Origin: an uncultured Bacilli bacterium
GTDB lineage: Bacteria; Bacillota_I; Bacilli_A; RF39; UBA660
Direction of reading: 5' to 3'
DNA length: 64,000 nt
NCBI GenBank assembly: GCA_934149245.1
Contig: CAKPER010000004.1
Coordinates: 3,757-67,756 of the forward strand
Part shown: in pieces, positions 1,328-51,910 of the stretch
How positions within the stretch are numbered: position 1 is the stretch's first letter
Layout: each line of letters opens with the position of its first letter
Notes under the pieces: model-generated
Seen by the model: the letters and a program-made list of their open reading frames with translations, nothing else
The model's database searches: none
What the model was told of the DNA's origin: nothing
Made by a program: the position numbers and the translations under genes

Positions 1328-2959
1328 TTATTTTTCCACTTCTATATTTATAGTGTATGACTGTTCACTATTATTTTCATTTATATTTAATTTATATCCC
1401 AATGATTCTAAGCTAATAGCCATATTTTTAAACATATTTATAACTGGAGTTACATCTTTTGGTGCTTGCATATTATTTATTGATGTATCCATATCATCAT
1501 CTTCTTCTGGTATTTCATCTAATTCATCATCGTCTTCATCATCAATATCATCTTCTGAATGATTATTAGGCATAGTGTTATTAGATGGAGAATTAGTATC
1601 TAAATTTCCGTCATTGCTTTGTGTAGGTTCATTTATTAATGGAGCTGGAGATATATTATTTGCTACTGATGATTGTTGAGTTTCATTTAAAGTATTTTGA
1701 CTTGATAGGTTTGGAATTATACTGTTAAGTGGATTAATATTATTGACTTCTTGAGTATTAATTGAAGAATTCGAGATTGGAGATTCATTTAAATTCGGAG
1801 TTGGAACAAAACCTTGATTAACTGAACTTGGTAGTGGTTGATTATACTGAACATCAGAAGTGATGTTAGGTGTAGTATTTATTTGATTATATGCAATATT
1901 ATCATTATTATTAGGTATTGATTGCATAGAATTATTTAATTGACTGTTATTATCAACTACCTGTTGTTGTAATGGCGTAGTATTTATATTTTGATTGTTT
2001 AATTGCTCCAAATTAGGAGTAATATTTTGTCCAGTTGCTAAAGAACTAAAATTTTCACTAGGATTACTTTTAAAATTACCAATATTATTATTTAATGGCT
2101 GGTTATTTTGCATACCATAATTACTAGTTTGTTGTTGAACGCTTTCTTGATTTGTTCCCGTTAAATCTATTAGAGGTGAAGGTGCTGTTAATGGTTGACT
2201 ATAATTCATTTGGTTAGATTGTTGTTGAAAAGAGCCAAAATTTGGTGATAAATTCATATTAGTTGGTTCATCTTCCAAAGATGGAAAAAATCTTCCTCCA
2301 AATGTTGGTTCCTGAACAGGTGATGGCTGTTGAACTTGTTGATTTAAATTATTATTATTTTCATTAATTAAATTATTTTGATTATTATTCATAATATTTT
2401 CTTCCCTTTCTTCTTCTTTATTTAATTCAGATAAACTAATAATATCAGAATTTATAGAATTATCTTTAAATGTAGGTTGTTGTATAGCTGAATCTATTTT
2501 ATAATTAGTTTCTTTATTAACTTTTATTTCTCTATTTGATAATTCTACTTTAGAATTAATTCTATCTAGAGGAATGCCTAATGATATGCTAATTTTTTCT
2601 TTATTTATATTAGGATATTCCAAAAGCTTTCTATATAAGAATGCCTCTTCTTTGCCAGATAATTCTTGTCTTTGAATATTGTCTAGAATAACCATTTCTA
2701 TCGCTTGTTCGTCAGTTAGATTTTGAATTATTACAGGTAATTTACTCATTCCTATTGCTTTTGCGGAATTATATCTCCTATTTCCTAAGATAATTTCATA
2801 TTGAATTCCCTTAGGTCTTACTACTAAAGGGGTTATTATTCCATGATTTTTAATTGAAGTTGCTAAATTATCTAAATTGTTGTAGTCATTATCTATATGC
2901 GATTGAAACTCTCCCGGAATTAACTCTGTAATACTTATATATTTAATATTTTCCTCCAC
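1328..2959 (-). CDS. ParB/Noc-family protein with a very long N/Q/S/P-rich low-complexity linker and an acidic tract
   Basis: GTG start with SD-like TGAGGGGA 5 nt upstream. The N-terminus carries ParB boxes (ILGNRRY = GxRR box; LDNIQRQEL = ENLQR-like box) and an HTH-like segment. Residues ~190-467 are low complexity and 468-491 are D/E-rich. The C-terminus (LGYKLNI...YTINIEV) resembles a ParB dimerisation tail. The gene sits next to rsmG, where noc lies in Bacillus. Confidence 0.75.
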   Translation of the reverse strand: MEENIKYISITELIPGEFQSHIDNDYNNLDNLATSIKNHGIITPLVVRPKGIQYEIILGNRRYNSAKAIGMSKLPVIIQNLTDEQAIEMVILDNIQRQELSGKEEAFLYRKLLEYPNINKEKISISLGIPLDRINSKVELSNREIKVNKETNYKIDSAIQQPTFKDNSINSDIISLSELNKEEEREENIMNNNQNNLINENNNNLNQQVQQPSPVQEPTFGGRFFPSLEDEPTNMNLSPNFGSFQQQSNQMNYSQPLTAPSPLIDLTGTNQESVQQQTSNYGMQNNQPLNNNIGNFKSNPSENFSSLATGQNITPNLEQLNNQNINTTPLQQQVVDNNSQLNNSMQSIPNNNDNIAYNQINTTPNITSDVQYNQPLPSSVNQGFVPTPNLNESPISNSSINTQEVNNINPLNSIIPNLSSQNTLNETQQSSVANNISPAPLINEPTQSNDGNLDTNSPSNNTMPNNHSEDDIDDEDDDELDEIPEEDDDMDTSINNMQAPKDVTPVINMFKNMAISLESLGYKLNINENNSEQSYTINIEVEK

Positions 2960-3044
2960 AGCTATCCCCTCAATTCTTTATTCTATAAATATAATAAACT
3001 ACTTTTTAAATTTTTTCAAGAAAAAAGTAAAAATTTATATATGT

Positions 3045-3746
3045 TTACAAATTTTTCTTTTTTATTACTTTATATTCTCTTGGGTATTTGATATCTGTTT
3101 TTTTATTTTTCTTAAATAACACTAAAGTTCTAACACTATTTTCATATGGTAATTCAAAGCACTTTTTATCTTCTAAAGATAGGGATAATTTATTCATATA
3201 ATGGTTTATATCTATTTTTTCATTAGATATATCCCCTTTCATTGCAATATACATACCTCCTACCTTTAATAGTGGTATTGAATATTCTAGCAGATGAGTT
3301 AAAGGGGCTACCGCTCTTGATGTAACTATATCATATTCTTCTCTTACATTTCTACTATATATTTCTGCACGTTCATTAATAACATTTATATTTGTTAAGT
3401 TCAATTTCAAAATAACCTTATTTAAAAAACTACATTTTTTTGTAGTTGAATCGACTAATGTTATATTCAACTGTGGAAAAGCTATTTTTAATACCATTCC
3501 TGGAAATCCTGCACCTGTTCCTATATCACATACTTTTTGATCAGACAATTCTACTATTTTGCTAATTGTTAGAGAATCATAAAAATGTTTTAAATATACT
3601 TGATTTTCATCAGTTATGGATGTTAAATTATATTTTTTATTTTCTTCCTTTAACAATCTATAATATTCATCTAATTGAGATAATTGTTTAGTATTTAATT
3701 TAATTCCTAAATCTGATAAAGCTCTTATAAATTCATCTTTATTCAT
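3045..3746 (-). CDS. rsmG: 16S rRNA (guanine527-N7)-methyltransferase RsmG (GidB)
   Basis: SAM-binding motif DIGTGAGFPG. It lies directly downstream of mnmG with an 8-nt overlap, the conserved mnmE-mnmG-rsmG order. Confidence 0.9.
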   Translation of the reverse strand: MNKDEFIRALSDLGIKLNTKQLSQLDEYYRLLKEENKKYNLTSITDENQVYLKHFYDSLTISKIVELSDQKVCDIGTGAGFPGMVLKIAFPQLNITLVDSTTKKCSFLNKVILKLNLTNINVINERAEIYSRNVREEYDIVTSRAVAPLTHLLEYSIPLLKVGGMYIAMKGDISNEKIDINHYMNKLSLSLEDKKCFELPYENSVRTLVLFKKNKKTDIKYPREYKVIKKKNL

Positions 3747-21700: not shown

Positions 21701-21716
21701 TGTTTCACGTGAAACA
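21701..21716. promoter_or_regulatory. parS site, perfect 16-bp palindrome TGTTTCACGTGAAACA (module 1)
   Basis: Exact match to the Firmicute Spo0J/ParB parS consensus TGTTNCACGTGAAACA. The palindrome extends to 18 bp (ATGTTTCACGTGAAACAT). DnaA box TTTTCCACA follows 9 nt later (21726-21734). Confidence 0.85.
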
Positions 21717-22471: not shown

Positions 22472-22487
22472 AGTTTCACGTGAAACA
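22472..22487. promoter_or_regulatory. parS-like site AGTTTCACGTGAAACA (module 2; 15/16 match to consensus)
   Basis: 14-bp perfect palindrome core GTTTCACGTGAAAC. DnaA box TTTTCCACA follows 7 nt later (22495-22503). Confidence 0.8.
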
Positions 22488-23356: not shown

Positions 23357-23372
23357 TGTTTCACGTGAAACT
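23357..23372. promoter_or_regulatory. parS-like site TGTTTCACGTGAAACT (module 3; 15/16 match to consensus)
   Basis: Same 14-bp palindrome core as the other two modules. DnaA box TTTTCCACA follows 6 nt later (23379-23387). Confidence 0.8.
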
Positions 23373-50155: not shown

Positions 50156-50241
50156 AGTAGGAAGATATATTTTATAAAATCTCTTTATTTTTGCTGTGAA
50201 ATTTGATACAATGGATTATGTAGGAGATAAGGGTGAGTATT

Positions 50242-51039
50242 ATGGGAAAGGTAATAGCAATTGTAAATCAAAAAGGTGGTGTAGGCAAAACAACTACTAG
50301 CATTAATTTGGCTGCTTCTTTGGGAGCCTTAAAAAAGAAAGTTTTGTTGGTTGATTTAGATCCACAAGGAAATGCAACGACTGGTGTTGGTATTAATAAA
50401 GGTGATATTAATAGTAGTATTTATGAGGTTTTAGTGATGAAGACACCTATAGAAAAAGCAATTGTTAAAACTAAAACTAAAAATTTAAGTGTGTTACCCG
50501 CATATTTAAATTTAGCTGGTGTTGATATGGAACTTATTGAAATAGAAAAACAATATCGTCAAAAAGGTGAGAAGTTTAATAGAGTACTTAGGTTAAAAGA
50601 AGAACTTGGTAAAGTTAAGGATAGGTATGACTTTATTTTAATAGATTGCCCTCCTTCTTTGGGAATTTTGACAACTAATGCTTTAGGTGCTTCTGATAGT
50701 GTACTTATTCCTGTTCAATGTGAATATTTTGCTTTAGAAGGAATTATGCAACTTATAAATACTATAATGTTAGCCCAAAAAAAGGTAAATCCTAATCTTG
50801 ATATAGAAGGGGTTTTATTGACTATGTTGACTACTAATACAAATTTAGGGTTAGAGGTTGTTGAAAGTATAAAAGGATTCTTTAAAGAAAGAGTTTATGA
50901 CACTATAATTCCGAGATTAATAAGATTAGCTGAGGCACCTTCGCATGGAAAGCCGATTTTAGAATATGAACCTAGAAGTAAGGGAACTGAGGCTTATTTG
51001 AATTTAGCTAAGGAGGTTATTGATAAAAATGGAGCATAA
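50242..51039 (+). CDS. soj: Chromosome partitioning ATPase Soj/ParA
   Basis: Deviant Walker [12 protein letters not shown]. Full-length ParA pattern ([17 protein letters not shown]). The preferred start is ATG 50242 ([13 protein letters not shown]). Confidence 0.95.
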
Positions 51040-51910
51040 AAGACAAGCTCTTGGTAAGGGGTTAGAGCAGTTATTTAGTAGTGAGGTTTTGGATTTTGAT
51101 TCTTTTGAAGATAATATAATGGAAAATGCTAAGGAATCTGATATTATACAAATTCCTGTTGAAGATATTAGGCCAAATCCATATCAGCCTAGAAGAAGTT
51201 TTGATCAACAAGCTTTAGATGAATTGGCTACTTCTATTAAAAATTATGGTGTGTTCCAACCTATTATAGTAAAGAAAAGTATAAAAGGTTATGATTTAGT
51301 TGCTGGAGAAAGAAGACTTAGAGCTTGTAAATTAGCTGGTCTTGATACTATACCTGCAATAGTAAAAGATTTTTCTGATGAGGAGATGCGTGAGATAGCT
51401 CTTTTGGAAAATCTACAAAGAGAGAATTTAACTTCTATTGAGCTTGCTTGGGCATACAAAGGAATAATTGATAGTTTGCATATTAGACAAGAAGATTTAG
51501 CAGCAAAAATAGGAAAGAGTAGAAGTCATGTTACAAATACTTTAGGATTATTGAATTTACCAAATGATGTTCAAGATATGGTACTTGATAATAAGTTGTC
51601 TATGGGACATGCTAGAGTACTTAGTAAGATGAAAGATGAAGACAAAGTAGAAGAATTGGCAAATAAGGTTGTTAAAGATAATATTAGTGTAAGAGATTTA
51701 GAAGATATTTCAAGTAAAAGTAATATTTCTAAGAGAGTTCAAGTTAATAGATTACCTAAAACCGAAAACCAATATAAGTATATTGAAAATGAATTAAGAG
51801 ATATACTTGGAACTAAGGTTAGAGTTGAAAATAAAAAAATTGAGATTTTTTTCGAATCTTCTGTTGATTTGACAAGGATATTAGATATTTTGAATGTTAA
51901 TGTTGATTAA
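51029..51910 (+). CDS. spo0J: Chromosome partitioning protein Spo0J/ParB
   Basis: [11 protein letters not shown]-terminus, ParB boxes [15 protein letters not shown] and ENLQRENL, an HTH, and the C-terminal [16 protein letters not shown]. Confidence 0.93.

Follow-up and report, generated by a model that had tools for sequence, protein, structure and literature searches.

The window analyzed here is a 64,000-nucleotide stretch of contig CAKPER010000004.1 from the assembly of an uncultured Bacilli bacterium (GCA_934149245.1), and our subject is a ParB-family gene on its reverse strand (1328..2959; GTG start; 543 amino acids) that occupies the noc slot. Noc is the textbook ParB paralog that turns a cytidine triphosphate (CTP) switch into a DNA-to-membrane tether. 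On balance, our analysis favors the view that this gene is the noc ortholog of a clade of uncultured gut Bacilli with reduced genomes, rebuilt such that it no longer works like Bacillus subtilis Noc. Its product very probably no longer loads at specific DNA sites, and comparisons across relatives make it likely that the gene gives rise to two proteins, namely the 543-residue long form and a 354-residue short form comprising a spacer and a dimerization domain. The initial annotation of this DNA had already held it probable that the protein works differently from B. subtilis Noc, and in this we concur.

Noc-type domains and a lost site reader

By sequence, the protein is a remodeled Noc ortholog whose N- and C-terminal domains are both of the Noc type, since the best solved relatives of the former are Noc structures and the latter matches a canonical Noc profile. 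The folded N-terminal module (residues 1-146; 2522..2959, reverse strand, as are all features of the gene given below) comprises a ParB/CTP-binding domain followed by a helix-turn-helix (HTH) remnant, and is modeled by AlphaFold2 with confidence (predicted local distance difference test score, pLDDT, about 90). Residues 3-96 match Pfam ParB_N (PF02195) with an E-value of 1.6e-23 (83 bits; cut-off 26.3), and the ParB/Spo0J model TIGR00180 is passed at 95.4 bits (cut-off 58.45), such that the profile searches bear out the ParB boxes previously read by eye in the N-terminal 145 residues. The Pfam search of the entire protein returned no domain beyond ParB_N, and HTH_ParB does not match. The NCBIfam Noc model TIGR04285 aligns residues 5-149 with its positions 2-146 of 255 at 106.9 bits, which is below its cut-off of 315. 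The closest solved structure by sequence is the Noc of Geobacillus thermoleovorans (7nfu; E 1.8e-24; residues 3-141 against Noc residues 26-165), with the Spo0J of Thermus thermophilus being a weaker match (E 6e-20), and the same 7nfu is the closest fold match of the predicted model (E 2.2e-12).

At the other end of the protein, the dimerization domain (residues 498-543; 1331..1468) is predicted to adopt a helix followed by a β-hairpin (residues 501-543, pLDDT 85-90). It matches, end to end and at 17-19 bits, a profile built from the last 62 residues of 20 canonical Noc proteins from other Bacilli; 2000 composition-matched shuffles scored at most 8.1 bits against this profile, and the Spo0J encoded in the window did not match it. 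A profile-profile comparison with hhalign likewise pairs this domain with that of canonical Noc (E 7.4e-5 over 44 columns), and the proposal of a ParB/Noc-type dimerization tail is thereby upheld.

The genomic setting agrees with these assignments. The gene lies near oriC directly downstream of rsmG (gidB; 3045..3746, reverse strand), the neighbor that defines the noc slot, within the order mnmE-mnmG-rsmG, and is followed by a convergent gene for a class-A penicillin-binding protein (PBP). This order is kept in 16 of 16 related loci, which come from species-representative, metagenome-assembled "Bacilli bacterium" genomes from the gut of goat, roe deer and Hadza people. Hence, both the ParB_N match and the rsmG synteny sustain the reading of a ParB-family protein in the noc slot.

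Set against this Noc-type framework are several losses. The protein starts at the equivalent of Noc residue 26, leaving the N-terminal 25 residues of Noc without a counterpart; these hold the membrane-targeting helix and helix α2 (PMC8429893). The stop-to-stop frame around the gene spans just 549 codons, with six in-frame codons upstream of the start, and thus offers no room for an N-terminal extension. An amphipathic membrane helix, which in Noc occupies the first ~10-15 residues, is not present in the 543-residue protein, as had been noticed at the outset. The DNA-binding domain is reduced to a three-helix remnant (residues 102-146; 2522..2656; predicted helices at 102-113, 120-127 and 131-146) that represents the HTH itself, whereas the helices that follow it in the DNA-binding domain of ParB and Noc are gone from the model. 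The HTH-like segment pointed out earlier is therefore real as a three-helix remnant and not as a complete, site-reading domain, to which the failure of HTH_ParB to match also speaks.

Further, Noc-binding sites (NBS; ATTTCCCGGGAAAT), of which none had been seen in the window, are likewise missing from the 1.47-Mb genome at up to two mismatches. We compared the source genome with 17 genomes coding for the subfamily that bears an FGGRFFPSLED motif (see below): NBS with at most one mismatch are confined to three of these 18 genomes (G165, G168 and G129) and are found in none of the other 15. The proteins of the same three genomes keep GERR, ENIQR and the SERHAR domain. Where the full domain is present, as in L009 and L012, HTH_ParB scores 117 bits. 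Thus, the loss of the site reader, the change of the catalytic Glu to Asn (discussed next) and the loss of NBS go together, because NBS occur only where the full domain and GERR are retained. No other palindrome seems to have taken the place of NBS: apart from parS, no GC-containing palindrome of 12-16 bp recurs meaningfully in a scan of the genome. The HTH remnant could still provide a weak, non-specific contact with DNA.

The alignment to Noc places Arg62 and Asn94 at the positions that R89 and N121 occupy in the B. subtilis protein, where each of the two is required for CTP binding (PMC8429893). Asn94 is part of DNIQR (residues 93-97; 2669..2683), the counterpart of ENLQR, and Arg62 part of GNRR (residues 59-62; 2774..2785), which replaces GERR with its catalytic Glu changed to Asn60. 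Among 117 homologs, Arg62 is present in 104, and position 60 is Asn in 97 and Glu in three. The corresponding Glu of Myxococcus xanthus ParB, E93, is the proposed general base, and in the E93A mutant hydrolysis is almost gone and the rings close with CTP even without parS (bioRxiv 10.1101/2021.05.05.442810). Since Arg62 and Asn94 are kept while the catalytic Glu is Asn, we give even odds to the proposal that the N-domain still binds CTP, hydrolyzes it poorly and, like the E93A mutant, may close without a loading site. Weighing against it, CTP binding is read from just two residues, and box III is entirely lost in more distant members of the family. The description of the protein as a CTP-dependent clamp is accordingly doubtful, with the NBS-reading half of the DNA-binding domain gone, no NBS in the genome and Asn in place of the GERR Glu. 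A useful comparison is PadC of M. xanthus (PDB 6ryk), in which a ParB-type nucleotide-binding domain is likewise missing a catalytic residue and the protein has an adaptor-like role; by this likeness, CTP may not be turned over and may instead serve as a cofactor or switch. PadC differs in lacking both catalytic residues, whereas the 543-residue protein keeps Gln19, and also in its bactofilin-binding architecture and genomic context.

Conserved motifs within the spacer

The two folded modules are separated by a predicted disordered region (residues 147-497; 1469..2521), with pLDDT values below 50 except at three short motifs that stand out in the alignment of the 117 homologs. Motif A, DIISLSELNKEEEREENI (residues 172-189; 2393..2446; consensus DIINLSELNKxExERxDxxMNN), leads up to Met190, and of the residues in and next to it, D172, L179, R185 and M190 are invariant and N191 is at least nearly invariant. 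Motif B, QEPTFGGRFFPSLEDEPTNMN (residues 216-236; 2252..2314), contains F220, G221, F224, P226 and S227, which are invariant across the alignment, along with P218 and N234, which vary little if at all. Motif C, PLIDLT (residues 262-267; 2159..2176; consensus LIDLTD), keeps I264, D265, L266 and T267 in at least 90% of the sequences. A six-frame search of the genome found neither motif B nor motif C elsewhere.

The pattern T-F-G-G-R-F-F of motif B resembles S-F-S-R-F-F, the core of the membrane helix of B. subtilis Noc. In the latter (S4, F5, S6, R7, F8, F9), each of F5, F8 and F9 is needed for membrane binding, with S, T or P being preferred at position 4 (PMC4331003). Motif B also has the highest helical hydrophobic moment in the spacer (0.54), though this is a weak measure. 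The main argument for motif B as a substitute for the N-terminal helix is that the helix-less long Nocs of related genera carry an internal KFF-type motif. A long Noc-type frame (340-689 residues) was found in 38 of the 40 genera sampled from the same taxonomic family; an N-terminal membrane helix is absent from 27 of 28 such proteins, and an internal (N/G)KFFxFLE(D/E)E..NMNM motif is present in at least 15 of the 28, which keep the DNA-binding domain and NBS. Hence, motif B could be the functional successor of the Noc FSRFF helix, moved into the spacer and tying the C-terminally joined dimers to the membrane, a possibility that we take seriously while placing it somewhat short of an even chance. 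Several features temper it: the core of motif B has a net charge of -2, whereas the N-termini of canonical Noc proteins lie between 0 and +1; its Gly-Gly and two prolines are unfavorable for a helix on an anionic membrane; and the likeness to FSRFF is too short for statistics, with hhalign aligning the C-terminal domains only. The last result comes from comparing the region from M190 onwards with full canonical Noc, in connection with the idea that the spacer is a decayed second N-domain left over from a tandem noc duplication, and it speaks neither for nor against that idea.

Alternatively, motif B and perhaps motif C might be docking peptides that tie the C-terminally joined dimers to a partner protein, in which case the protein would be a scaffold or adaptor and not membrane-anchored through these motifs; this we hold to be just as likely, and thus likewise below evens. 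As the docking target, one may think of a division protein, of Soj/ParA, of DnaA or of the N-domain of the protein itself. Such docking would suit the combination of an acidic-aromatic motif B and a β-strand-like LIDLT, both invariant and both embedded in disorder, and the net negative charge that disfavors anionic membranes. Motif B further looks like a transposed version of the motif for binding ParA, which reads (L/F/I)G(K/R)G(L/F/I) (PMC12704722). The genome does code for ParA and for FtsZ (C11:1994-3079, with a normal C-terminal peptide), and a search for MinC_C (PF03775) gave no match in the assembly, which is 93% complete. However, no partner was found; motif B has no second occurrence in the genome and resembles the FtsZ C-terminal peptide DFDVPPFLRDRD only weakly; and the DNA-binding, NBS-bearing Nocs of the family have no other candidate membrane element. 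In particular, we rejected mimicry of the FtsZ C-terminal peptide, given that the FtsZ of this genome ends in DFDVPPFLRDRDNY and the resemblance to EPTFGGRFF is weak.

A probable internal start at codon 190 and the composition of the spacer

The initial annotation missed a putative internal start at codon 190 (ATG; 2390..2392). From this codon, a nested frame (1328..2392) would encode the proposed 354-residue short form, an acidic protein (isoelectric point about 4) with motifs B and C and the C-terminal domain. M190 is invariant in the 117 sequences, and is preceded by a Shine-Dalgarno (SD)-like element, GAAAGGGA (2403..2410), that includes the AGG codon of R185. This codon, twelve bases upstream of M190, is AGG in 17 of 17 loci, and AAG in two further loci that encode Lys instead; AGG accounts for 10% of Arg codons genome-wide and 13% elsewhere in the noc-slot genes, and the other conserved arginines (R48, R62 and R223) are mainly encoded by AGA. 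The aligned spacing between the conserved element and the ATG is about 9 nt. The predicted duplex of the element with the anti-SD is -9.4 kcal/mol, compared with -9.5 kcal/mol for the gene's own SD (GAGGGGA; 2965..2971, with a 6-nt gap to the GTG) and a median of -9.0 kcal/mol for 693 gene starts. Of 5594 internal in-frame ATGs, just 0.5% attain the value of this element. In all 19 loci the duplex lies between -6.4 and -10.3 kcal/mol. Thus, codon 190 has the makings of a start with its own SD, properly spaced and conserved beyond the need of the amino acid sequence.

Natural variation provides a second line of evidence, in that four variants encode the frame from M190 as a separate gene. In L052 (1526-2985), a frameshift leaves a 174-residue N-domain gene that ends in an ATGA overlap with the downstream frame. 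In L053 (896-2122), the N-domain region is deleted, with the SD, the ATG and the downstream frame intact. L054 (3-914) has a TGA two codons before the ATG, and L076 (2-1261), which belongs to the same species (99% identity), has TAA at codon 150; in both, the downstream frame is intact. In another contig (L075:1-190), probably a metagenomic chimera, foreign GC-rich DNA is fused to the gene precisely at GGAAAGGGAAG, at the SD immediately ahead of the internal ATG. We also considered a standalone or differently fused version of the short module, and discarded it: when the C-terminal 354 residues were searched exhaustively against 1.84 billion cluster representatives, this family alone was recovered (44 hits and a few short frames).

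The comparison also supplies points on the other side. The duplex energies use an assumed standard Firmicute anti-SD, as the assembly is without the 16S 3' end. Disruptions occur downstream of M190 as well (the P0099 frameshift), and for this reason the split variants could include sequencing errors or dying genes. Instead of a start, the conserved GAAAGGGA-N9-ATG arrangement might be a translational pause, an mRNA-structure element or the relic of an old gene fusion, frozen in a gene that makes only the 543-residue protein. Consistent with this, the evidence for a second product is comparative, a comparable internal site is missing from most of the family's long Nocs, and on two contigs the gene-caller picked M190 right where a contig edge or a chimera lies. 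We nevertheless consider this alternative unlikely: it does not readily account for a rare AGG fixed across loci in which other conserved Arg codons vary, an invariant ATG, an SD of a strength and spacing typical of real starts, a variant that has lost the N-domain while keeping the SD, the ATG and the frame (L053), and three with an intact downstream frame behind a closed upstream one (L052, L054 and L076). An internal start is not general in the wider family. Sporadic strong SD-like elements with an in-frame ATG were observed 19-40 codons before the KFF motif in the long Nocs L043, L061 (-12.4 kcal/mol) and L067, and internal starts may thus have arisen more than once.

Turning to composition, residues 190-467 are 24% N, 12% Q, 12% S and 10% P, with two K/R residues in 278; with Q+N at 36%, K+R at 0.7% and predicted disorder, this segment has the Q/N-rich, charge-poor makeup regarded as prion-like, against a proteome background of 8% N and 2.2% Q. 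The model shows a disordered middle of ~350 residues (148-498), and the very long, disordered, Q/N-rich spacer described previously is borne out by composition and prediction alike. The same holds for the acidic tract quoted at residues 468-491 (SEDDIDDEDDDELDEIPEEDDDMD; 1487..1558), a feature of the closest relatives only. Two other frames with Q/N-rich, charge-poor windows, both much shorter, were seen on C6 (G000; forward strand, from 21275; 324 residues) and C5 (forward strand, from 4948; 507 residues).

These properties could be taken to mean that the gene codes for a single-product ParB/Noc CTP clamp whose linker has grown into a prion-like, condensate-forming spacer, with phase separation as its function. 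In favor are the Q+N content over almost K/R-free residues, far above the proteome, the predicted disorder of the entire stretch, and a roughly constant spacer length across the subfamily (a median of 204 residues after motif B). However, the Q/N content varies from 17% to 42% across the FGGRFFPSLED subfamily, and the spacers of the wider family are acidic or rich in P, E and K, with Q/N richness not conserved there. Ratios of nonsynonymous to synonymous change (dN/dS), computed against the DNA of two relatives from independent assemblies, are 0.36-0.65 for the bulk of the spacer, in which all indels are in-frame, as against 0-0.05 for residues 214-238 (motif B). Hence, the notion of a featureless prion-like linker does not hold: the spacer houses invariant motifs amid residues that drift. 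Moreover, the proposed short form is strongly acidic, and a condensate linker leaves unexplained the invariant ATG with its SD, the motifs, and the co-loss of the DNA-binding domain, the GERR Glu and the NBS. We therefore regard phase separation as the function of this spacer as improbable.

Finally, the gene is intact, being neither an artefact nor a pseudogene: despite the truncated DNA-binding domain, a score of 107 bits against the Noc cut-off of 315 and stops or frameshifts in some relatives, the possibility raised in the initial annotation of a decaying noc pseudogene, or of an assembly or frameshift artefact in the low-complexity part, can be dismissed in view of intact frames of 543, 542 and 541 residues (98, 92 and 68% identity) in independent assemblies, over 100 full-length homologs, and strong purifying selection on three separate parts (dN/dS 0.08 for the N-terminal 146 residues and 0.06 for the last 46, besides that of motif B). 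A search of 5.8 billion proteins recovered 178 relatives, nearly all of 400-550 residues. One deviant among the relatives, P0139 (750 residues), has the N-domain and motifs A-C, but where the spacer and C-terminal domain would follow it has ~550 unrelated residues that seem to be folded; it is either a fusion or a mis-assembly.

Relatives, a possible mode of action and the genomic neighborhood

In comparison with the Noc proteins of B. subtilis and G. thermoleovorans (PDB 7nfu, 7ng0, 7ol9), the 543-residue protein shares the position after rsmG, the CTP-binding N-domain, for which Noc is the best match in sequence and fold, with Arg62 and Asn94 in the places of R89 and N121, the type of C-terminal dimerization domain, and an F..RFF motif like the F5-S6-R7-F8-F9 helix. 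It differs in having this look-alike 220 residues into the protein (220-225) and no membrane helix at its N-terminus, three helices of the DNA-binding domain only, no genomic NBS, Asn for the GERR Glu, a 350-residue disordered spacer in place of the short basic linker of Noc, and, probably, an internal start that yields a second product. As the N-terminal helix, the full DNA-binding domain, the NBS and the model cut-off all fail, we file it as a Noc-derived variant and not as a member of Noc proper.

The long Nocs of the same taxonomic family (e.g., L041, L057 and L060) resemble it in several respects: they share the slot, the lack of an N-terminal helix, the long disordered spacer and the Noc-type C-terminal domain, and their spacer motif, (K/R)FF..LE(D/E)E..NMN, is comparable to motif B. 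In contrast to the 543-residue protein, those examined keep GERR, ENLQR and the full DNA-binding domain with its SERHAR part, and many of their genomes have perfect NBS, often in tight arrays; most lack a conserved internal SD and ATG, and their spacers, instead of being Q/N-rich, have an acidic or mixed composition. Examples of such arrays are at least seven perfect NBS in tandem at ~79-bp spacing (G151:C1:89140-89707), seven NBS within 850 bp, 16 kb from noc (G129:C3:152281-153137), and three perfect NBS at 66-bp spacing (G077:C24:15933-16078). The NBS of B. subtilis, unlike these tandem arrays, are scattered.

Genes with an internal start and two isoforms are known from bacteria, as in CheA-L/CheA-S, ClpB, IF2 and SafA/C30 of B. 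subtilis. These resemble the present case in having an in-frame ATG with its own SD inside a longer frame, and a short form that shares the C-terminal part. They are not ParB/Noc proteins, and the case of the noc-slot gene draws on constraint at synonymous sites and on natural split variants. A 2025 survey of ParB-CTPase architectures covers Noc in its canonical form only (PMC12704722), and the literature that we searched describes no long-spacer Noc, no internal Noc-like motif and no two-product parB or noc gene.

We envisage the following mode of action. The C-terminal domains would dimerize as in Noc and ParB, giving rise to long-long, long-short and short-short dimers, and motif B, perhaps along with motif C, would attach these dimers to the membrane or a partner. 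The N-domain would bind CTP with slow turnover and might engage itself without a loading site, and the short form, having no N-domain, would set the number of CTP-switch heads per membrane- or partner-bound dimer. Taken as a whole, such a two-protein Noc, in which an acidic short form, docked on the membrane or on a protein of division or replication, serves as the scaffold, the long form adds a hydrolysis-poor CTP head that closes without a DNA site, and F..RFF is the relocated anchor, is put forward only tentatively. If correct, it would amount to a CTP switch that is independent of DNA sequence and that acts, in bacteria without MinC, on cell division or on the handling of chromosomes. A role in the placing or timing of division is plausible.

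In evolutionary terms, the clade presents a natural series that runs from canonical Noc, through long-linker Nocs with an internal motif and NBS arrays, to more reduced forms, in some of which the site reader, the catalytic Glu and all NBS were lost together, with others being devoid of box III. The series separates what is removable from what is fixed, namely the dimerization domain and one 20-residue motif that are always kept. It also suggests that an element binding the membrane or a partner can change its place and that a second product is nested in the gene; in the literature searched, neither has been described for ParB or Noc.

As had been recognized earlier, a canonical Spo0J/ParB with ParB_N and HTH_ParB is encoded separately in the window, at 51020..51910 on the forward strand. 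It carries the ParA-binding motif as LGKGL, and adjoins a Soj-like ParA (50233-51039). A pattern scan found three parS sites (0-1 mismatch) in the genome, all of them in the window (21701-21716, 22472-22487 and 23357-23372), which are presumably served by this protein. The noc-slot protein shares with Spo0J the ParB_N fold and a similar order of domains; it differs in the Noc type of its C-terminal domain, the lack of HTH_ParB, and the absence from its N-terminus of LG(K/R)GL and, more generally, of the (L/F/I)G(K/R)G(L/F/I) motif. A third ParB_N protein (G000:C75:542-1438, L003; 298 residues), with an SGHRRKKA box and on a contig of 2.3 kb, is probably from a mobile element and unrelated to the noc-slot question.

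With respect to transcription, a promoter-like site, TTGAAA-17-TATTAT (2991..3019, reverse strand), lies in the 85-bp gap after rsmG and is a consensus match only, the counts of such sites in the region around the gene being at chance level. An internal promoter within the gene was likewise considered and set aside, as promoter-like sites inside it are no more frequent than chance. At the other end, a terminator-like hairpin (1319-1341), between the end of the convergent PBP gene (1316) and that of the noc-slot gene (1328), overlaps the last codons of the latter and could serve both genes.

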